Of a stretch of DNA of 41,974 nucleotides, positions 4,590-41,974 are shown in pieces. Positions within the stretch are counted from its first letter, which is position 1. The number at the start of each line of letters is the position of its first letter. The stretch lies in the NCBI GenBank assembly GCA_026712335.1, contig GCA_026712335.1_4695.1. One strand, given 5' to 3'. Under the pieces are notes generated by a model, which had not been told where the DNA came from, searched no databases, and saw only the letters and a list, made by a program, of their open reading frames with translations. This stretch comes from Escherichia coli (lineage in GTDB: Bacteria > Pseudomonadota > Gammaproteobacteria > Enterobacterales > Enterobacteriaceae). A program made the position numbers and the translations under genes.

Positions 4590-5060
4590 CAACTCTAAGA
4601 GTAACCCTTATGTACCCTCTATGGTCTACAGGGTCTCTTAGGGTCTCTCACGTAGTCTCACCTTATGATATAGCCTCTGTGGTTAACCTTATGAGACTTG
4701 ATGTACCCCTTTAAGAATCCTACAGAAAAATCTGAGTGAGTATCTCATAGTTCATAAACACCGAGTCCCCCCCCCTATGGCCTCCTTCAGTCCACCCAAA
4801 GAGCCTTCCTCTATGGTAACTCATGGTTTACCTGAAGTCAATCCTTTTGTGAGACATTGGGTTAACTCTAGGTGTAACCACTAGATATTGTGCTTAGTGA
4901 TACCTTATGACCACTATATGTAGTCCTCTCTGTGTCCCTATCTGTAAGTGACCCTAGAGTTATCACCTTATGTCACCTCCTTATGTCTATCCTTATGGCT
5001 GCCTATCCTTATGTTAACCTTCAGTCAGTGCCTTATGTTTATCAGTGACCAATAGGCTTC
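4590..5060. repeat. Terminal-region array of CCTTATG heptamers (at least 8 copies), analogous to the CCTAAAG array at T7 ends
   Basis: Read directly: ACCTTATGA, CACCTTATG, TCCTTATG (x3), GCCTTATG etc.; noncoding; contains a T7 left-end-like motif TCTCATAG at 4743. Confidence 0.7.
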
Positions 5061-5443
5061 GTCACAAAGGGAAATCACTATCTCACTCTGTTTAGCAGTC
5101 CCTGNCCCCCCCCCTATGGCCTCCTTCAGTCCACCCAAAGAGCCTTCCTCTATGGTAACTCATGGTTTACCTGAAGTCAATCCTTTTGTGAGACATTGGG
5201 TTAACTCTAGGTGTAACCACTAGATATGGTGCTTAGTGATACCTTATGACCACTATATGTAGTCCTCTCTGTGTCCCTATCTGTAAGTGACCCTAGAGTT
5301 ATCACCTTATGTCACCTCCTTATGTCTATCCTTATGGCTGCCTATCCTTATGTTAACCTTCAGTCAGTGCCTTATGTTTATCAGTGACCAATAGGCTTCG
5401 TCACAAAGGGAAATCACTATCTCACTCTGTTTAGCAGTCCCTG
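4767..5443. repeat. Direct duplicate 4767..5104 = 5106..5443 with N at 5105, beginning at a C9 homopolymer (scaffold overlap or doubled terminal repeat)
   Basis: Read directly; copies differ by one SNP (T at 4889 vs G at 5228). Confidence 0.85.
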
Positions 5444-5640: not shown

Positions 5641-5669
5641 TTGACATTGATAATAGCTTATGAGACTAT
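5641..5669 (+). promoter_or_regulatory. Putative host sigma70 early promoter (A1-like)
   Basis: -35 TTGACA at 5641; 17-nt spacer; weak -10 GACTAT. Confidence 0.45.
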
Positions 5670-5775
5670 AGCAACCGTTGAGAGACACAGCGCTACCAAC
5701 CACTAGACAAGACCTAGAGTTATCTGGTGAGGCGGGAATGTCTCAAGTAGTCATCAACCAGACACACGAAAGTGG

Positions 5776-5804
5776 TTGACTCAACGAAAGCAATAACGTA
5801 GTAT
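5776..5804 (+). promoter_or_regulatory. Putative host sigma70 early promoter (A2-like)
   Basis: -35 TTGACT, 17-nt spacer, -10 TAGTAT. Confidence 0.65.
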
Positions 5805-5814
5805 AGCAGTCGTC

Positions 5815-6267
5815 AACAACTGGTCGCCCTCTGAAACAACATGAGGTGTCACGGTGAGAAACAAAAGTAGTTGACAAGTAGCAACAACAAGATGTAAGAT
5901 GTACGACATAACGTTCTTGTGAAGTCCTACACTGAAAGGGACTCGGTGCTAACAAACCTGCACTTAAAGCTCTTTAACAATTTGGTGACAATAGCACTCT
6001 TGAGATGGCGGCACTAGCGATTAACTCAAGGTGACTCGAANAACAACTGGTCGCCCTCTGAAACAACATGAGGTGTCACGGTGAGAAACAAAAGTAGTTG
6101 ACAAGTAGCAACAACAAGATGTAAGATGTACGACATAACGTTCTTGTGAAGTCCTACACTGAAAGGGACTCGGTGCTAACAAACCTGCACTTAAAGCTCT
6201 TTAACAATTTGGTGACAATAGCACTCTTGAGATGGCGGCACTAGCGATTAACTCAAGGTGACTCGAA
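5815..6267. repeat. Direct duplicate 5815..6040 = 6042..6267 with N at 6041 (scaffold overlap)
   Basis: Read directly; duplicates the A3-like promoter. Confidence 0.9.
5871..5900 (+). promoter_or_regulatory. Putative host sigma70 early promoter (A3-like; duplicate copy at 6098..6127)
   Basis: -35 TTGACA, 18-nt spacer, -10 TAAGAT. Confidence 0.65.
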
Positions 6268-8491: not shown

Positions 8492-11354
8492 ATGACTAAC
8501 GTAATCAACGCACCAAAGAACGACTTCTCTGACATCGCTAACGCAATCATGCCATACAACATTCTGGCTGACCATTACGGCGCACAGCTTGCAGCTACGC
8601 AGTTACAGCTTGAGCACGAAGCGCACACCGAAGGCGAGAAGCGTTTTCTTAAGGCAATGGAACGTCAAATCAAAGCGGGTGAGTTCGGTGATAACGCAGT
8701 GGCTAAACCGCTCCTGTCATCTCTCGCACCGAAGTTTATCGAGGCGTGGAACGATTGGTTCACTGAAGTGGAAGCGAAGCGTGGCAAGCGTCCAGTAGCC
8801 TACAATCTGGTACAGAAGGTTGCACCTGAAGCTGCTGCATTTATCACACTGAAGGTCACACTCGCTTGCTTGACGAAAGAAGAGTTCACCAACCTGCAAT
8901 CGGTCGCCACTAAGATTGGTCGCAGTATTGAGGATGAACTGCGTTTTGGTCGCATCCGTGACGAAGAAGCGAAGCACTTTAAGAACCACGTACAGGAGGC
9001 ACTGAACAAGCGCGTTGGTATCGTCTACAAGAAAGCATTCATGCAAGCTGTAGAAGGCAAGATGCTTGATGCTGGTCAACTGCAAACCAAGTGGACCACA
9101 TGGACACCTGAAGAATCAATTCACGTTGGTGTGCGCATGTTGGAACTGCTCATTGGGTCTACTGGTCTCGTTGAGTTACACCGCCCGTTCGCTGGGAACA
9201 TCGAGAAGGATGGCGAGTACATCCAACTGACCGAACAATACGTTGACCTGTTATCTAAACGTGCTGGTGCACTGGCTGCAATCGCTCCAATGTATCAGCC
9301 TTGCGTGGTCCCACCTAAGCCTTGGACTTCTCCGGTCGGTGGTGGCTATTGGGCTGCTGGTCGCAAGCCTCTCTCTCTGGTTCGCACTGGTAGCAAGAAG
9401 GGACTTGAGCGTTACAACGATGTGTACATGCCTGAAGTTTACAAGGCCGTGAACATCGCACAGAATACTCCTTGGAAGATTAACAAGAAGGTTCTGGCAG
9501 TGGTCAACGAGATTGTGAACTGGAAGCATTGCCCGGTTGAAGATGTACCCGCTCTGGAACGTGGAGAACTCCCGGTCAAACCTGATGACATCGACACGAA
9601 CGAAGCGGCTCTGAAAGCGTGGAAGAAAGCGGCCTCCGCAATCTACCGCAAAGAGAAGGCACGAGTGTCACGCCGCATGAGCATGGAGTTCATGTTAGGT
9701 CAGGCCAATAAGTTCGCACAGTTCAAAGCTATCTGGTTCCCAATGAACATGGACTGGCGCGGTCGTGTGTATGNGAGAACTCCCGGTCAAACCTGATGAC
9801 ATCGACACGAACGAAGCGGCTCTGAAAGCGTGGAAGAAAGCGGCCTCCGCAATCTACCGCAAAGAGAAGGCACGAGTGTCACGCCGCATGAGCATGGAGT
9901 TCATGTTAGGTCAGGCCAATAAGTTCGCACAGTTCAAAGCTATCTGGTTCCCAATGAACATGGACTGGCGCGGTCGTGTGTATGCTGTGCCGATGTTTAA
10001 CCCGCAAGGCAACGACATGACCAAAGGCTTGCTGACGTTGGCTAAAGGTAAACCAATCGGTGTCGATGGGTACTACTGGCTGAAGATTCACGGTGCTAAC
10101 ACTGCTGGCGTGGACAAGGTGGACTTTGCAGAACGCATCAAGTTCATTGATGACAACCATGAGAACATCATGAGCGTTGCGGCTGACCCGATTGCTAACA
10201 CTTGGTGGGCCGAGCAAGATTCTCCGTTCTGCTTCCTCGCGTTCTGCTTCGAGTATGCAGGTGTGCAACACCACGGGATGAACTACAACTGCTCTCTTCC
10301 GCTGGCGTTCGATGGTAGCTGCTCCGGTATTCAGCACTTCTCCGCGATGCTCCGTGATGAGATTGGTGGTCGTGCGGTTAACCTGCTGCCAAGCAAAGAG
10401 GTACAAGACATCTACCGCATCGTAGCGGAACGTGTCAACGAGATTCTGAAGCAAGATGTAATAAATGGCACCGACAACGAAGTCGAAACCGTGACCAATA
10501 AGGACACAGGGGAAATCACTGAGAAGCTCAAGCTGGGCACGAAGGAACTGGCTGGTCAATGGTTAGCATACGGTGTTACTCGTAAGGAGACTAAGCGTTC
10601 CGTTATGACCTTGGCGTATGGTTCCAAAGAGTATGGCTTCCGTGACCAAGTGCTAGAGGATACAATTCAGCCAGCTATCGACGATGGCAAGGGCTTGATG
10701 TTCACTCAACCGAACCAAGCGGCTGGCTACATGGCTAAACTGATTTGGAACGCGGTAACGGTGACAGTGGTCGCTGCGGTTGAAGCAATGAACTGGCTGA
10801 AGTCTGCTGCTAAACTGCTGGCTGCTGAAGTCAAGGACAAGAAGACAAAAGAGGTTCTGCGCAAACGCTGTGCGGTACATTGGGTTACTCCTGATGGCTT
10901 CCCGGTCTGGCAGGAATACAAGAAGCCAGTACAGACACGCTTGAACCTGATGTTCTTAGGCCAGATTCGTCTACAGCCTACCGTGAACACCAACAAGGAT
11001 AGCGGAATTGATGCTCGTAAGCAGGAGTCAGGCATCGCACCTAACTTTGTCCACTCAATGGATGGTAGCCACCTGCGCATGACTGTGGTCCGCTCCAATG
11101 AGGTCTACGGTGTGGAATCGTTCGCACTGATTCACGACTCCTTTGGTACTATCCCTGCTGATGCTGGCAACCTGTTTAAAGCAGTGCGTGAAACGATGGT
11201 CAACACTTACGAAGAGAACGATGTACTTGCAGACTTCTATGAGCAATTTGCTGACCAGTTGCACGAATCACAGCTTGACAAGATGCCTGAGATGCCAGCT
11301 AAAGGTTCTCTGGACCTGCAAGAAATCCTTAAGTCAGACTTTGCGTTTGCCTAA
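8492..11354 (+). CDS. 1: Single-subunit DNA-dependent RNA polymerase gp1 (ORF split by duplication artifact 9564..9984; true length about 883 aa)
   Basis: ORFs 8492..9796 and 9765..11354 together are collinear with T7/T3 RNAP (PCVVPPKPW, WFPMNMDWRGRVYAV, ALIHDSFGT, C-terminal SDFAFA); removing one 211-bp copy restores frame. Confidence 0.97.
9564..9984. repeat. Direct duplicate 9564..9773 = 9775..9984 with N at 9774 inside the RNAP gene (scaffold overlap artifact)
   Basis: Read directly; copies identical; period 211 is not a multiple of 3. Confidence 0.92.
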
Positions 11355-11361
11355 CGGAATC

Positions 11362-11384
11362 TAATACGACTCACTATTGGGAGC
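11362..11384 (+). promoter_or_regulatory. Phage RNAP promoter (phi1.1A-like)
   Basis: TAATACGACTCACTATT GGGAGC. Confidence 0.8.
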
Positions 11385-11443
11385 CTTCGGGCTTCCTAAA
11401 CTTTAAGATACTTTAAGTTCTAACTTTAAGAGGAAACACAATC

Positions 11444-12001
11444 ATGTTTACTTTAATCACTTCAGTAGGCGCTCTCGTATCAACCATTCTTGCAGCAACA
11501 TACTATAATCGTTCAAAGGTATTTCTCACTAAGCTAATCAAAGAAGAGAAGAACTCTCATGCACTCAAAGAGAGACTTGAAGATGGTTGGCGAGAGAAGC
11601 AGGAACTAGCTGGTCGAATCCGTACCTTAGAGTTCGAACAACAATATGACATGTCGAACCAACGAGAACTCATCGAGCGTCTACGCGCTGAGGCAGTGGA
11701 GTACCGCAAGGAACTTAAAGAGGCAAAGAGTACCATCCGTGAGTACACTCACAGTGACATCACGTCTATCAAGTTTACTGCTCACATACCGGATGCTGGC
11801 TGGAAGCGCACTGAGTTCAAGCTGGGTCTTGGCTCATGTGGTAAGCAAGTCACTTGCCTACATTGGGTTGAACAAGCCGACCGCTATCTGCTGACACAGA
11901 CGTGCACTGATGGTGAGCGCAAAGAGTTCACCTATTATAAGAAAGATGTAGCGGGTCGCATTGAGATTGCACGTAAGGTTGCAGACAATACGACTCACTA
12001 A
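11444..12001 (+). CDS. Hypothetical protein (185 aa; N-terminal hydrophobic segment plus predicted coiled coil); gene 1.05 position
   Basis: ORF after the phi1.1A-like promoter; start MFTLITSVGALVSTILAATYY; no T7 counterpart; T3-lineage phages carry a gene here. Confidence 0.6.
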   Translation: MFTLITSVGALVSTILAATYYNRSKVFLTKLIKEEKNSHALKERLEDGWREKQELAGRIRTLEFEQQYDMSNQRELIERLRAEAVEYRKELKEAKSTIREYTHSDITSIKFTAHIPDAGWKRTEFKLGLGSCGKQVTCLHWVEQADRYLLTQTCTDGERKEFTYYKKDVAGRIEIARKVADNTTH

Positions 12002-12008
12002 TGGGAGA
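11986..12008 (+). promoter_or_regulatory. Phage RNAP promoter (phi1.1B-like)
   Basis: CAATACGACTCACTAAT GGGAGA, overlapping the stop of the upstream ORF. Confidence 0.75.
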
Positions 12009-12014
12009 CACTGA

Positions 12015-12060
12015 AAGTTAAACTCAAGGTCATCACATTTGGTGGCCTTCATGATTAACT
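12015..12060 (+). promoter_or_regulatory. Putative RNase III site (R1.1-like)
   Basis: AAACTCAAGGTCATCACATTTGGTGGCCTTCATGATTAAC hairpin. Confidence 0.55.
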
Positions 12061-12090
12061 GTCATTAACTACACAGAAGGAAATAACATT

Positions 12091-13835: not shown

Positions 13836-13866
13836 GGTCAGTCCTTAACGGGGCTGGCCTTTTTGC
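13836..13866 (+). terminator. Rho-independent terminator (early terminator TE-like)
   Basis: GGTCAGTCC TTAAC GGGGCTGGCC stem-loop followed by TTTTT; same position as T7 TE after gene 1.3. Confidence 0.7.
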
Positions 13867-35133: not shown

Positions 35134-38100
35134 GTGGATAAGTATAACCCGAACGAATCGCATGAATATGATGCGTTATTTCAACAAGCTGCTGACACAC
35201 ATGGAGTCTCCTATGGCCTTCTTCGGAAGGTCGGTTGGGTAGAGTCCCGCTTTAAACCTACGGCTCAATCACCAACAGGGCCACGAGGTGTCATGCAGTT
35301 CACTAAGGCAACTGGTCAGGCTTATGGTCTCCAGAACGATGAGGACTTCGCTGACCCGGCTAAGTCCATTGATGCTGGTGCTCGTTACCTTGCAGACCTC
35401 GTTAAGAAATACAATGGGGATGAACTTAAAGCTGCCCTAGCGTACAACCAAGGTGAAGGGAGCAACGGTAAGCCACAACTGGAAGCCTACGATTCTGGTA
35501 ACTTTGCTGGCATCGGTGATGAAGGTCGTAACTATCTGCGTTCACTTCTGGATGTCGCTAAGTCACCTAAGAGTGGGGACATCGAGTCATTCGGTGGTAT
35601 CACCCCAAAGGGTAAAGGGATTCCGTTTGATGCTGCGATGAGTGGTATCGGGAAGAAAGGAAAGGTAACAACTGAACTCCCTGAGTCTCACGAAATGTCC
35701 TTTCAAGGTAAAGAACAGGCCGCTCCCAATCAGCCGTTCGGAAAAGATTATTGGGAAGCCAAAGGTACAACTCTTGACGAAGCAAACGAGCGTTCAACCT
35801 TCTTCGGATTCGGTAGTGCTGCTGAAGCAGAACTCTCAAACTCAACCTTGGGTGTTGCCTTCCGTGCTGGTAAGCGTGACAATGGTTTTGATGTGCTCAC
35901 TGATGTACTTCAACCGACACGGTTTAACAGCCACATTTGGTCGCCTGAAGAACTCGATAAGATTCGCAAAGAAGTGAAGAACCCTGCGTACATGAACGTT
36001 GTGCTTGGTGGTTCCGCTGAGAACCTTGACGAGCTAATCAAGATGGCTAATGAGAACTTCGAGTTGGACTCTAAGGCTGCTGATGCGGGTCTAGGTGCCA
36101 AGCTGTCTGCTGGTCTTATTGGTGCTGGTGTTGACCCGTTGACCTACGTTCCTATCGCTGGGACTGCGGCTAAAGGGTTCAAGCTGGTTAACAAGGCGTT
36201 GATTGTAGGTGCTCAAGCTGGTGCACTTAACGTTGCCTCTGAAGGTCTGCGTACATCGGTTGCTGGTGGTGATGCACATTATGCTGAAGCTGCCCTTGCT
36301 GGGATGTTACTGGCTGGTGGACTGACTTCTGTGGCAGATGGCGTTGCTGCGGGTCTCCGTAAGTCTGGTGCTGAACAGATTGAGAACCCCTTTGCTGCTG
36401 CACAGATGCGCTTTGAGACTCGTGAGACTGCACGTAACACTGGTGGTTATGACGCAAGCCGTATGCCTCCTAGTGAAGACCGAGTGTTCTCACAGCACAA
36501 CGGCGTTGAGTATGCACCACTGGAAACTGAACCGGGTGCTGTAGTGTTGCGTGATGGTTCCATTATCAGTGACACAAACTTGGCTAACCCGATGACAGCC
36601 AAAGAGTTCGAAGAAGTAGACCCTGAACGTGCTGCGTGGGGCTTGCCTATGCGTGGATTGAGTGAAATCGGCTTGAGGACTTTACGTTCTGAACATGCTG
36701 AAATCCGTGGTCTCGCTAAGGACTTAGTGCGTTCACCTACAGGTATGGAGTCAGGCTCACATGGTAAGTTTGGTTCCACTACATCGGACATCATAGAGCG
36801 ACTGCGCAGTCTCAATCATCGAACCTACAATAACCTATATGGTGCAATGAAGGAAGCGATGGCTGACCCTGAGTGGTCTGTTGGTATGTTCAAGAGTGGT
36901 GCTCAAGGTGCCCGTCAACAAATCTATCGTCGTACTAGTGAGGCTATCGAGAGACCTGAACTTCAGGCCAACTTGACCAAGGCAGAACGTAAGGTGATGG
37001 ACATCGTGAAGGAACACTATGACCTCAAGCGTGAGATGATGGAGAACCCGTCGATGTTCGGTAACAAGGCCACCTCTATCTTCCCTAACAGTCGTCACAA
37101 AGGGACTTACGTTCCTCATGTGTACTCACGGGAAGCCAAGCAGTTGTACTCACAGGCTCTTGGGGGCACTGATGGTTTACAGGAAGCAGTTGCTGCAAGC
37201 CTGATGGCATCATATCATGCACGCCCTGAAGTTAAGGCCCGTATTGATGAGATGCTGGCAGAGCAGTTACGGGTATCCAAACCAGCGGGTAAGACTGCGG
37301 GTACTACACCCAATAAGCCCTCTTCTGTCAACACAGCAAGTTACCAGATGAAACTGGACGATACAGCTACACAGGCAAGTGATAAGGTATTGGAACTAAA
37401 AGACGTCATGACCAACGCTGAGAAGCGAGTTGCGGACCGTGAAAGGAAACTCCAGAACTCCAAGGACAGACTGGCTTCGCATGAGGCTAAACTGAAGGAG
37501 TTGGAAGAAAAACTAGCTGCTAAACCTAATAGCAAAACCATTCCTGTTAAGATTGAGAGCCGGAAGCAGATGATTGAGACCCAGAAGTCTCACATCCGTA
37601 TTAACACAGAGCGTCTCGACTACATGAAAGGACAGGCTGCTAAGGTCCAAGACAGAATCACCAAAGCAACCGCCGAAGCTGAGGAAGCCGCCTCTGCTGC
37701 CAAAGGGCAGAAGACTACTGGTGGCGGTGAAGACACTATCGTTGGTGAAGCCACATCGGGTAATGCACCTCAATCAGTACAAGAGGTGACTATGGATATG
37801 GTCGAGAAGTACGCTATGGACAAGGCTTACGGTATTACGAAGACCGATGAGTTCAACTCTTCAAGTGTCATTGACGATAACATTGAGGGTCTCGTTGGGA
37901 TTGAGAACAACTCATTCCTTGAAGCCCGTAACCTGTTTGATTCTGACGTGCCAATCACTCTACCGAACGGGCAACAGTTCTCTGTGAATGACCTCCGTGA
38001 CTTCGATATGAAGCATGTGATGCCAGCATATGACCGCCGTGTTGATGGTGATATTGCTATCATGGGAGGCACAGGTAAGACTACTGCTGAACTCAAGGAC

Positions 38101-39782
38101 GCTATTATGGCTCTTGATAAGAAGTCTGAAGGTAAAGGTACAATGAAAGGTGAAGTGGAAGCACTTAAGGATGTCGTTAAGATTGNGTGAATGACCTCCG
38201 TGACTTCGATATGAAGCATGTGATGCCAGCATATGACCGCCGTGTTGATGGTGATATTGCTATCATGGGAGGCACAGGTAAGACTACTGCTGAACTCAAG
38301 GACGCTATTATGGCTCTTGATAAGAAGTCTGAAGGTAAAGGTACAATGAAAGGTGAAGTGGAAGCACTTAAGGATGTCGTTAAGATTGTCACTGGTCGTG
38401 CTCGACGCAATCAGGATACTGTAGGTGACACTATGGTCCGTGCTCTGTCCGATATGTCCTTCTTCACGAAGAACGCATATATGGGCTTGCAGAACCTAAC
38501 CGAAATCTCCGGTATGTTGCAGAAGGGTAATATCCGTGCGATGCTTCATGGCATTCCGGTACTGCGTGACTTAGCGTTCCGCAACAAGCCAGTCTCTGGT
38601 AGTGAACTCAAAGAACTCCACTCTATGGTGTTCGGTAAAGAGTTTGATGACTTAGTCCGACCTACTCGTCAAGACATCATTCAGCGACTCCGTGAGTCCA
38701 CTGATACACCTGATGTTGCCGCAAAGGTTGTTGGTTCTATCAAGCACACAACTCAAGAACTGGCGGCTCGCTCACCTCTCACCAAGTTCCTCAATGGTAC
38801 GTCAAACTACCTTCTGGACATGGCCCGACAGGGTGTGATGGGTGATGTGGTAACTCATGCTATCACTGGAAAGGGTGCCAACAAGTGGATTAAAGGTGAC
38901 ATGTTGAAGTCTGCGAGTATCTCTAAGGAACAGTGGGAAGGCATTCAGGCTCTCATCCGTGAGAACGTTACCCGTGGGGAAGATGGTAAGTTTACCTTCA
39001 AGGATAAGAAGGCTCTGGCTAATGACCCTCGTGCTATGGACTTGTGGCGTTTGGCTGACAAGGTTGCTGATGAAACGATGCTTCGACCTCATAAGGTTTC
39101 CTTACAGGATTCCCATGCGTTTGGTGCCACCGCTAAGTTAGTCCTTCAGTTTAAGTCGTTTGTCATCAAGTCGATGAACTCTAAGTTTATCCGCTCCGGT
39201 CACGAAGCCTTTAAGAACCAGCGTGCTATGGACATGGCGCTGACCTATGCAATCTCTGGTGGTATCGCTGGCTCCTACTATGTGGCACAGGCCCACTTGA
39301 AGGCTGCTGGTCTTCCTAAAGAGCAACAGAAGGATTACTTGAAGAAAGCTCTCGACCCGAAGATGATTGCCTACGCTGCGGCCTCCCGAAGTTCACACTT
39401 AGGGTCGCCTCTGAGTATCGCTAACTTCGCTATGGGTGCTGCTGGTTACGACCAAGGTCTTATGGTTCGCTCTACGATTCTACCGAAAGGTGATGACAAG
39501 CGTGAGCGCAACAAGGCGGTGACTTCTCGTGACATGGGTGATTCCATTATGGGCGCTATTGGTGAACAGGTTCCTGCTCTTGGCTTCGCTGGTGCTGCTC
39601 TAGCTACTGGTCGAAATGCTTATGGTGTCCTTACGGCTCCTAACAAACCGACCGAGCGTGAGATGATGACTGGCTTAATGAATGCTCACCGAGAGATGAT
39701 TCCTAACGATCCAATCTCTCAACAGATGCTCATTAAGTTCTATGAGGCCAACGGTGTTCACATTAAGGCTGACAAGAAGTAA
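35134..39782 (+). CDS. 16: Internal virion protein D gp16 with N-terminal lytic transglycosylase domain (ORF split by duplication artifact 37984..38388; about 1481 aa after de-duplication; GTG start)
   Basis: ORFs 35134..38190 and 38187..39782 together are collinear with T7 gp16; SLT motifs ESRF...MQFTKAT...AYNQGEG; C-terminus YEANGV; removing one 203-bp copy restores frame. Confidence 0.95.
37984..38388. repeat. Direct duplicate 37984..38185 = 38187..38388 with N at 38186 inside gp16 (scaffold overlap artifact)
   Basis: Read directly; copies identical; period 203 is not a multiple of 3. Confidence 0.92.
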
Positions 39783-39854: not shown

Positions 39855-41780
39855 ATGGCTAACAAAATTTCCACTGTACGTACTTACCCGCTGAACGGTG
39901 CCGTGAACTTCACGATTACCTTTGAGTATTTAGCACGTAAGTTCGTCCAAGTGACACTCATCGGGAAAGACCGTAAAGAGTTGGTTCTCAATCAGGACTA
40001 TCGCTTTACCACTAAGACCCAAATCACAACCTCCCGTGCGTGGACTGCTGCCGATGGTTATCAGATGATTGAGATTCGTCGATTCACTTCTGCAACCGAC
40101 CGTCTGGTTGACTTTGCTGATGGCTCAATCCTTCGTGCGTATGACCTTAACATCTCACAGATTCAGACGCTGCACGTAGCTGAAGAGGCACGAGACCTAA
40201 CTGCGGATACCATTGGTGTCAACAATGATGGTCACTTGGATGCCCGTGGTCGTAAGATTGTGAACCTAGCGTTCGCTACCAGTGACTACGATGCTGTCCC
40301 TCTGAAGCAAGTAAAAGAGCGCGAGTCGTCTGCTTGGAACGCTGTTAACAAGGCCAATGAACACGCTAACCGCTCTAACACTGAGGCTAACCGATCGCGA
40401 GATGAAGCTGACCGTGCAAAACGTGAAGCTGACCGCTCAACCCAACAGGCAGGTGTCTCTACGGCACAGGCGGTTGAGTCCAAGAAGCAAGCTGACCGTT
40501 CCAACTCTGAGGCTAACCGAGCTAAAGGTTATGCTGATAGTATGACCGCAAGTGTAGCTGAGGCCAAGAAGCAAGCTGACCGTTCTAACTCTGAGGCCAA
40601 TCGTGCCCGTGATGAGGCCAATCGTGCTGCCGGAGAAGTGACTAAGGCTGCTGCTGAGGTTGCCAAAGCCGCTGCACACGTTGCTACCGCTGATGGACAT
40701 GCTGACAGAGCCAACACTGAGGCAAACCGCTCCAAGAGTGAAGCTGACCGTGCAAAGACCGAGGCTGACAAGTTAGGGAATATGAATAACTTAGCGGGAA
40801 CCATTAAAGCGGTTAATGGTGAGAACGTTGTTTTTAAGAATGATGTTGTAGCACCCGGACAGATTACTGGTGAAAAGGAAGTAAGGGCTGGCGCAGGTCA
40901 ATCGTTTAGCGTGTTAACAAGGAACTCGTTGCAGCTTGTGAACCAGAACTTCGCTGATAGAAATATGAGGTTCTTCGTATGGGGGAATGACCAAGGACGT
41001 GCAAACGTATTTGAGTTAGGTGGTAGCGGTAATGGGTACTATATGTATATCCAGAAGGCTAACCTTAACGACACATTTTGCCAGATGCGAGTGAATGGAC
41101 ATATGGAGGCTGCTGGTGGGCTTACGGTTGGACAATCAGGTGACTTCACTGGAATCTTACAGACTCGCTCACAGAACCTGCTGATGATTAACTCTGCTCG
41201 TCGACATATTCAAATGAAAACCAGCGATAACTACACCGATGGTTATCTTTACAAAGACCCCGGCGCTGGGGCGTGGAGGCTTAACTTTGGTCAGGCAGCT
41301 AACAGGGAGTATACGTTTGATTCAAATGGTACATTAACATCCAACTCAGGCTGGTACATTCCACCAGATGGTAACTTATACATCACGAAGTATGATTCTT
41401 ACATCGACGGTTGGGTCAACAAACGCCTTGGAGAACATGCCTACAATAAAAGCGAAGTAAACAACCTAGTCAATGGACGGTTAACTCAAGCGCAAGCTGA
41501 TGGTCGATACGTCAATAAGAATGCTGGGTGGGCTGAGGTCTGGAAAGGCTCTGCTGGTGGTGGTGTCTCGGTAGGTCTCTCACAGGATGTTCGTTGGAGA
41601 ACCATCTGGATTCAGACCAATGGTCGCTGGAACGCCGTTCCTATTGGTGACAATGCGGCTTACTTCATCTCGTCTGCTGGTGGTTGGTTGAAGTTCACAA
41701 TCTCCAACAACGGCAGAACTTTCCGTAACGACAAAGACGACCGTTCAGTCCCTACGCGAATCTTAGTTCAAAACCAATAA
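39855..41780 (+). CDS. 17: Tail fiber protein gp17 (641 aa, with expanded central repeat region)
   Basis: N-terminal domain FEYLARKFV.VTLIG.DRK...DGSILRAYDLN..QIQT.HVAEEARDLT.DTIGVNNDGHLDARGR.IVNLA and C-terminal tip match T7 gp17. Confidence 0.96.
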   Translation: MANKISTVRTYPLNGAVNFTITFEYLARKFVQVTLIGKDRKELVLNQDYRFTTKTQITTSRAWTAADGYQMIEIRRFTSATDRLVDFADGSILRAYDLNISQIQTLHVAEEARDLTADTIGVNNDGHLDARGRKIVNLAFATSDYDAVPLKQVKERESSAWNAVNKANEHANRSNTEANRSRDEADRAKREADRSTQQAGVSTAQAVESKKQADRSNSEANRAKGYADSMTASVAEAKKQADRSNSEANRARDEANRAAGEVTKAAAEVAKAAAHVATADGHADRANTEANRSKSEADRAKTEADKLGNMNNLAGTIKAVNGENVVFKNDVVAPGQITGEKEVRAGAGQSFSVLTRNSLQLVNQNFADRNMRFFVWGNDQGRANVFELGGSGNGYYMYIQKANLNDTFCQMRVNGHMEAAGGLTVGQSGDFTGILQTRSQNLLMINSARRHIQMKTSDNYTDGYLYKDPGAGAWRLNFGQAANREYTFDSNGTLTSNSGWYIPPDGNLYITKYDSYIDGWVNKRLGEHAYNKSEVNNLVNGRLTQAQADGRYVNKNAGWAEVWKGSAGGGVSVGLSQDVRWRTIWIQTNGRWNAVPIGDNAAYFISSAGGWLKFTISNNGRTFRNDKDDRSVPTRILVQNQ

Positions 41781-41826
41781 GGACAACATATAGACCACGG
41801 ATGGTCTCAACAATAAGGAGGACACA

Positions 41827-41974
41827 ATGTTGTCTTTAGATTTTAACAACGAGGTAGTGAAGGCTGCACCGATTGTAGGGACAGGCGTAGCCGATGGTGC
41901 TGCCCGTCTGTTCTTCGGCCTGTCACTCAACGAGTGGTTCTATGTAGCCGCAATTGCCTACACAGTGGCTCAAA
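41827..41974 (+). CDS. 17.5: Holin gp17.5, 5' fragment (wrap-around copy of 544..691)
   Basis: Identical to the start of ORF 544..750; window ends inside the gene. Confidence 0.85.
   Translation, partial: MLSLDFNNEVVKAAPIVGTGVADGAARLFFGLSLNEWFYVAAIAYTVAQ

Follow-up and report, generated by a model that had tools for sequence, protein, structure and literature searches.

The 185-codon open reading frame (ORF) at positions 11444-12001 of the window, the whole 41,974-nt stretch of DNA analysed here, is by its sequence the BA14-type gene 1.05, a real and already catalogued gene. We lean towards a model in which it is an accessory gene that encodes a membrane-tethered beta domain and serves as an early host-interference effector. 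The window itself is a BA14-like Berlinvirus (Studiervirinae). The ORF starts with ATG, ends with a stop codon after its 185 codons and lies, like all features described below, on the + strand. Its product shares 99.5% identity with proteins of Escherichia phages CarlSpitteler and vB_Eco_D226 that are recorded as 'hypothetical proteins', and 98.4% with those of BA14 and Kvp1, which are annotated as gene 1.05. Full-length matches (100% coverage at 95-99.5% identity) were found in 19 records. The proteins of BA14, Kvp1, 285P and CarlSpitteler differ from it at one to five amino acids (97-99.5% full-length identity) and are encoded at the same locus between the same promoters; those records give no function. 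In BA14, the gene carries the label 'fusion protein with gene 1.05', and the promoters on either side of it are annotated as phi1.05 and phi1.1. The BA14 record (EU734171.1 5728-6285; L001 4001-4558) also calls the gene 1.05 product 'gp1.1', the same as the next gene, an annotation slip that was carried into search outputs.

An earlier note on this DNA had placed the ORF at the 'gene 1.05 position'. The locus is correct, but the relationship goes beyond position, since the C-terminal domain is homologous to T3 gp1.05 and the gene is named 1.05 in BA14, Kvp1 and 285P. Pfam family PF25755 (Phage_T3_1_05, 'Enterobacteria phage T3 gene 1.05 protein') matches aa 106-176 with an E-value of 2.1e-29, covering profile positions 2-72 of 73. 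Membership was assigned to scores above the curated gathering threshold, and the match scored 101.7 bits against a cut-off of 27. All core residues of the family are present, including F125, L127, G128, G130, C132, G133 and K134, and further along the domain Q152, K160, F162, Y164, G171, R172 and E174. Relatives are encoded in 503 phage records, 337 of which are Klebsiella phages. When 1.84 billion representative proteins were searched with a profile, 179 clusters at 50% identity were returned, and all 55 distant members tested belong to the same Pfam family.

Known functions did not accompany these matches. The four significant PHROG matches (E-value 8e-17 or lower) are each to a family of unknown function, and the other PHROG matches, to a tape-measure family (E-value 0.0026) and to phrog_6179 (E-value 0.24), lie above the 0.001 default. 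We found no annotated function for the protein in PHROGs, NCBIfam or PADLOC. PADLOC returned no matches and NCBIfam nothing meaningful, and no known anti-defence, defence or superinfection-exclusion family was matched. The note had named strong homology to a characterised, mundane protein as evidence against its reading; no such homology was found. The literature searched contained no functional study of any gene 1.05 family member. Among 185,579 genomes of bacterial and archaeal species, a single locus was found, on a 19,089-bp Sphingobium sp. contig, and the viral collection includes this very contig as an IMG/VR viral contig. The gene 1.05 family thus appears to be phage-restricted. As both gene and family are already in GenBank, Pfam and PHROGs, nothing here is categorically new. 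The contribution of the analysis lies in describing the family coherently as early, accessory and widespread, with at least 503 phage genomes and 179 diverged clusters represented.

The surroundings of the ORF agree with its description as a gene that follows the RNA polymerase (RNAP) gene and a phage promoter: the coordinates, the GAGG motif and the promoter scan all fit. The RNAP gene terminates at 11354, and the gene order in the window is RNAP, 1.05, 1.1, 1.2, ligase. A T7-RNAP-type promoter, TAATACGACTCACTATTGGGAGC, lies at 11362-11384 with its +1 at 11379, as located by sequence and pattern scan; in the summary of the analysis, the ORF is given as lying 8 nt after the T7-type promoter that follows the RNAP gene. 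The promoter had been called 'phi1.1A-like'. A T7-type promoter is indeed there, but its counterpart is annotated phi1.05 in the BA14 and T7M records, and it is phi1.1 that overlaps the stop codon of gene 1.05. One nucleotide past the phi1.05 transcription start, the transcript can form a 5' stem-loop with a UUCG tetraloop (GGAGCC-UUCG-GGCUUC, 11380-11395; fold energy -8.7 kcal/mol). In the alignment, this stem is preserved in BA14, JSS1, PP74 and NJ2 despite sequence changes.

Between the stem-loop and the start codon lies an AT-rich leader (33% GC over 11386-11443), which contains three ACTTTAAG repeats at 11400-11430 and is a candidate primary replication origin region. The T7M record annotates a primary origin from just past phi1.05 into the start of gene 1.05, and about five copies of the ACTTTAAG repeat also occur in Yep-phi (L073 700-760). 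By analogy with T3 and T7, the repeat-containing leader is a probable origin element. It is followed by a Shine-Dalgarno GAGG at 11430-11433, 10 nt 5' of the ATG, which is kept in all seven aligned phages.

At the other end of the gene, the coding sequence runs into the phi1.1 promoter (CAATACGACTCACTAATGGGAGA, 11986-12008), in agreement with the BA14 annotation. Positions 11987-12001 are dual coding: the phi1.1 core AATACGACTCACTAA is in frame and reads Asn-Thr-Thr-His-stop. The promoter triplets AAT ACG ACT CAC TAA are thus codons N182-T-T-H185-stop of gene 1.05. This NTTH tail is conserved in nearly all aligned Berlinvirus homologues and has a pLDDT below 50 in the AlphaFold2 model. Since the promoter encodes the tail, its conservation reflects a DNA-level constraint. 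Between phi1.1 and gene 1.1, an R1.1-like (RNase III-type) hairpin at 12012-12064 (fold energy -18.1 kcal/mol, z -2.4) coincides with an R1.1 site in the T7M record.

A strong, terminator-like hairpin with a T-run lies at 13836-13859, 3' of the ligase gene, and the BA14 annotation places TE after gene 1.3. Gene 1.05 lies upstream of this early terminator, so host RNAP should transcribe it in the early unit. From this layout and by analogy with T7, we presume that the gene would be transcribed early by host RNAP and in addition from its own phage-polymerase promoter, phi1.05. T7 has no gene here, as the note had stated: the 185 nt between its gene 1 and gene 1.1 hold only two promoters, phi1.1A and phi1.1B.

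Given this density of DNA signals, we considered whether the ORF is non-functional and merely held open by origin and promoter constraints. The last four codons are dictated by phi1.1, and the first five to six codons, which adjoin the AT-rich leader, are conserved in DNA. The rest of the gene behaves as a coding sequence. Against six relatives, the C-terminal domain has a dN/dS of 0 to 0.18, with 0.05-0.18 for the five pairs that have diverged further (dS 0.24-0.76). The N-terminal half has a dN/dS of 0.10-0.17 among relatives with the same module, and its values are saturated between module types. Low dN/dS at high dS means that conservation of the domain acts at the protein level, and the C-terminal domain is under strong purifying selection. 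A DNA-level cause of C-terminal conservation was therefore rejected, except for NTTH and perhaps the first codons. High synonymous divergence with conserved amino acids, a confident fold prediction, and 179 diverged clusters with stand-alone forms in other genomic contexts all argue against the non-functional reading, which we regard as highly improbable. The occurrence in 503 phage records and a dN/dS far below 1 likewise show a real coding sequence rather than a chance ORF.

The conserved part of the protein is the PF25755 domain, predicted from Pfam and AlphaFold2 as a six-stranded beta domain at aa 104-177 (11753-11974). In the full-length AlphaFold2 model (pLDDT 87.8), a helix at aa 2-102 is followed by six beta-strands at aa 106-177 and a disordered NTTH tail. 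When modelled alone with a 55-sequence alignment, the domain reached a pLDDT of 91.8 and a pTM of 0.77. Five residues are invariant across the family (G128, C132, Q152, G171 and R172), and nine others are nearly so (F125, L127, G130, G133, V136, L139, K160, F162 and Y164). Several of these lie in a G-x-G-(P/S)-C-G-K loop at aa 128-134.

Two candidate activities of the domain were rejected. The C-terminal region had been described as containing Cys and His residues. Three of each are present, which could suggest a zinc site as a variant of the non-functional reading, but they do not form a conserved metal-binding set, for which three or four conserved ligands would be expected: only C132 is invariant, no His is, C138, C154, H114 and H140 vary, and H185 is promoter-encoded. 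This variant is just as improbable. A P-loop NTPase was also considered, given G128-x4-G133-K134. The lysine is followed by Q, E, T or V rather than by the S/T of a Walker A motif, and the loop forms a beta-hairpin in an all-beta domain.

Foldseek against the PDB gave nothing at an E-value of 1e-3 or lower, and neither did a profile search of PDB sequences. In BFVD, the only matches were uncharacterised Autographiviridae proteins, including those from phages of Pseudomonas, Ralstonia, Delftia, Aeromonas, Dickeya and Providencia. Comparable shapes were Sm/SH3-like small beta-barrels such as Hfq, the WYL domains of BrxR, DriD and CapW, and the substrate-binding domain of SspB, over which 45-57 residues superposed at 2.2-3.9 A. 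Like these, the modelled PF25755 domain is small and all-beta, with a strongly bent sheet and a similar size. On the predicted model, the fold would be either new or a divergent small barrel. Since there is no significant fold match, no function can be transferred to the domain from its structure.

The N-terminal half of the protein is of a different nature. The hydrophobic N-terminus that had been noticed is evident: the 19-residue Kyte-Doolittle mean is 1.79 over aa 1-19, and aa 1-22 are uncharged and followed by NRSK..K..K. From hydrophobicity and charge bias, we predict a signal-anchor transmembrane helix at aa 2-21 (11447-11506). We classified 263 family proteins by N-terminal type. A long N-terminal extension is present in 181, and 163 of these start with a hydrophobic helix. 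Among the 163 anchored members, K/R residues average 0.01 before the helix and 3.9 in the 15 residues after it, and every one of them has the same charge bias. By the established positive-inside rule, this uniform bias predicts an N-out/C-in signal anchor. The window protein is thus predicted to be a bitopic inner-membrane protein, oriented N-out/C-in.

The other 18 long members have the coiled coil without the anchor helix (P0172, P0173, P0199, P0203 and P0205 among others), and many of them start with MFN. The remaining 82 of the 263 proteins consist of the bare domain (75-100 aa) and have no signal sequence. As a sign of an amphipathic membrane-binding helix, the hydrophobic moment was compared with that of shuffled sequences; neither the short T3 N-terminus nor the anchor-less 'MFN...' forms exceeded these significantly (p = 0.13 or worse). 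Given the predicted N-out/C-in anchor and the bare forms without signal sequence, the domain should work in the cytoplasm.

The segment that joins anchor and domain is a predicted coiled-coil stalk, a hypervariable module at aa 25-103 (11516-11752), as judged by periodicity and AlphaFold2. The charged, coiled-coil middle expected by the note was recovered: 44% of the residues are charged, the hydrophobic periodicity peaks at exactly 3.5 residues, a peak reached by about 1% of shuffles, and AlphaFold2 models one unbroken helix from aa 2 to aa 102 with a stalk pLDDT above 90. Pfam searches gave only sub-threshold coiled-coil matches for the window stalk, and only sub-threshold generic coiled-coil matches for the N-terminal halves of nine relatives. 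In the model we favour, the single anchor helix would insert N-out/C-in in the inner membrane, the stalk of about 80 residues (about 12 nm) should oligomerise the protein, and the beta domain would be held in the cytoplasm at the inner face of that membrane.

A transmembrane helix followed by a coiled coil is also the layout of an i-spanin, so the protein might instead be a lysis-type membrane protein (i-spanin-like or holin-like). In three high-GC loci, a bare domain gene lies just 3' of a spanin-like pair, which is a further point in favour of this reading. The window already has its own holin (544-747), Rz (1317-1745) and Rz1 (1480-1683) genes, however, and the Rz anchor is N-in/C-out, with its positive charges before it, the opposite of gp1.05. 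In addition, gp1.05 has no sequence similarity to Rz/Rz1 and no embedded lipoprotein ORF, and its gene is early rather than late. Membership in the i-spanin (Rz) family was rejected for its opposite charge bias, the missing partner o-spanin ORF and its early gene. We give a lysis role hardly any credence; like the non-coding reading, it is essentially excluded.

We compared the protein with its relatives in other phages. The most numerous group is the Przondovirus-type 'fusion protein' of about 186 aa (KP32, K11, Kp168), to which the preponderance of Klebsiella phages among the matching records corresponds. These proteins have the same arrangement of anchor, coiled coil and PF25755 domain at the same locus. 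Their domain is about 45-53% identical to that of the window, whereas their N-terminal module is unrelated to it in sequence. The gp1.05 of T3 and T7M (90 aa) has a homologous beta domain at the same locus within the same promoter bracket. The core motif F-K-L-G-L-G-P-C-G-K ... Q ... K-x-F-x-Y ... G-R-I-E is shared, and domain identity between T3 and the window is about 37-47%. Unlike the window protein, T3 gp1.05 has neither a transmembrane helix nor a coiled coil, and just 17 residues precede its domain.

Variation within Berlinvirus shows that the two halves of gene 1.05 have different histories and that N-terminal modules have been swapped between phages. Berlinvirus proteins whose N-terminal halves can hardly be aligned still have about 90% identity in the domain. 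The halves diverge very unequally at synonymous sites: for the N-terminal and C-terminal halves, respectively, dS is 0.13 and 0.64 against phage nasanit, and 0.81 and 0.24 against PYps49T. DNA-level conservation ends a few codons past the ATG and returns at the domain, and the flanks align between phages. The N-terminal module of the window type was found in 24 phage records, all of them BA14-like. The GC content of the N-terminal half is only slightly low and is uninformative on a foreign (moron) origin. No second copy of the PF25755 domain was found in the window.

A variant (P0029, 110 aa; Escherichia phage P151, PP083182.1 33376-33570) retains the anchor, some of the coiled coil and the ...GRIEIARKVADNTTH terminus. 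It has apparently lost nearly all of the PF25755 domain by an internal deletion or replacement.

The position of the gene differs among phage groups. In 48 Studiervirinae loci, it lies between the RNAP and ligase genes. In distant Autographiviridae (L056-L065, e.g. L064 3793-4101 and L058 4944-5516), a bare domain gene directly precedes the RNAP gene, and in some of these copies strands 4 and 5 are separated by an insertion. A few high-GC phages (L004 4392-5258, L006 2644-5246, L007 3998-5237) have the bare domain gene elsewhere, just 3' of an Rz/Rz1-like spanin pair. One of these three contigs is the Sphingobium sp. assembly contig. A 262-aa ORF downstream of the domain gene is conserved between L004 and L007.

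Gene 1.05 is an accessory cassette of T7-family phages and is dispensable. The cassette comprises the ORF, phi1.1 and the R1.1-type hairpin, and it is flanked by two promoters and two similar ribosome-binding leaders. It is absent from the Berlinvirus Yep-phi, where the ATG of gene 1.1 stands on the same leader as gene 1.05 does here. Loss of the cassette probably occurs by recombination between the promoter copies or the similar leaders.

Experimental data were found for only one family member, T3 gp1.05. Harcombe, Springman and Bull (2009; PMC2696425) evolved T3 without its ligase gene. In their line A, two alternative deletions (5659-6041 and 5665-6006) ran from promoter to promoter, spanned phi1.05, gene 1.05 and phi1.1, and predated exposure to the ligase-deficient host. 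In line B, F22S was fixed in gp1.05, and both the line A deletions and this substitution were scored as strictly compensatory (PMC2696425). In our alignment, T3 F22 matches F111 of the window protein, and both are the F of the conserved I-K-F strand. These results show that the T3 homologue is dispensable and that promoters mediate its loss, and they suggest that some activity of T3 gp1.05 carries a cost in the absence of ligase. As the T3 protein lacks anchor and stalk, the data concern the domain only. Loss of the T3 gene could act via the promoters or the origin rather than via the protein; the F22S line makes this less likely.

The T3 experiments make a link to DNA nick or ligation metabolism possible and provide a concrete, testable functional lead. 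The protein could be a replication or DNA-metabolism factor, which binds nucleic acid or a nick-processing protein and either couples replication to the membrane or changes how far ligase is required. We consider this unlikely. A more specific proposal, which we put forward as a long shot, is that PF25755 is a new-fold, phage-restricted effector against host nick processing or ligation, e.g. against the NAD-dependent ligase or a nick-generating activity, and that the phage's own ligase, two genes downstream, is needed for its tolerance. If true, this would account for the deletion of, or damage to, gene 1.05 in both T3 lines without ligase. The exchangeable N-terminal modules would then localise and multimerise the effector at the membrane, the site of DNA entry and replication in T7-family phages.

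In the model that we favour, the beta domain would be the conserved active part of the protein, as it stands alone in many phages and has an invariant Gly-rich Cys loop, Gln and Arg. The anchor and stalk would be an exchangeable delivery module that raises the concentration and valency of the domain at the membrane. The domain may bind and disable a conserved host component early in infection, in host takeover or counter-defence, a step in which our confidence is low. A host partner is preferred to a phage-specific one, since phages of Escherichia, Salmonella, Klebsiella, Yersinia and Pectobacterium all make use of this domain. Within the overall model, a role as a takeover or counter-defence effector is a tentative proposal that falls somewhat short of an even chance. 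The class I accessory proteins of T7 (Ocr gp0.3, gp0.4, gp0.6, gp0.7 and gp1.2) are comparable: like gp1.05, they are early, small, dispensable in the laboratory and patchy in distribution among relatives. They have no sequence or fold relationship to gp1.05, and none is known to be membrane-anchored with a coiled-coil stalk.

The note had proposed host takeover or superinfection and defence interplay for this gene; its observation is confirmed and that interpretation is partly supported. Under superinfection exclusion, an early inner-membrane protein would block genome entry of later related phages, like Imm and Sp of T4. The predicted membrane anchor and early expression fit this, as do dispensability in single infection and an N-terminal module that is highly variable between close phages, as would be expected in phage-versus-phage conflict. 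However, the conserved part would by prediction lie in the cytoplasm, and the protein is anchor-less in T3 and in those 82 of the 263 relatives. The variable part resembles a generic anchor and coiled coil rather than a recognition surface, and no annotated exclusion family was matched in PHROGs or Pfam. We therefore think exclusion rather unlikely and retain host interference as the preferred role.

Knowing whether the role of the gene is takeover, counter-defence or exclusion would aid phage engineering. The carriers are mostly Klebsiella phages, with others infecting Escherichia and Salmonella, and T7-like phages are used in phage-therapy work there. The family can be described as a conserved, putatively cytoplasmic domain whose fold may be new, joined in many lineages to interchangeable anchor and coiled-coil modules and carried in an easily lost, promoter-bracketed cassette.

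Finally, several features of the window concern its assembly. The assembly is circularly permuted: its first letter falls in the late region rather than at the left end of the genome. A 300-nt repeat is identical at the two ends (341-640 and 41624-41923), and the holin gene is partly duplicated at 41827-41973. Five perfect (100%) tandem duplications of 202-339 nt, with copies separated by a single N, were found at 1038-1448, 4767-5405, 5815-6267, 9564-9984 and 37984-38388. One of them interrupts the RNAP gene, whose reading frame is broken at 9774. The sixth N, at 340, is part of a repeat that is imperfect (80% between 115-414 and 341-640). The N-separated duplications look like contig overlaps that were joined unmerged, i.e. 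scaffolding artefacts, and the window is therefore about 2 kb longer than related genomes.
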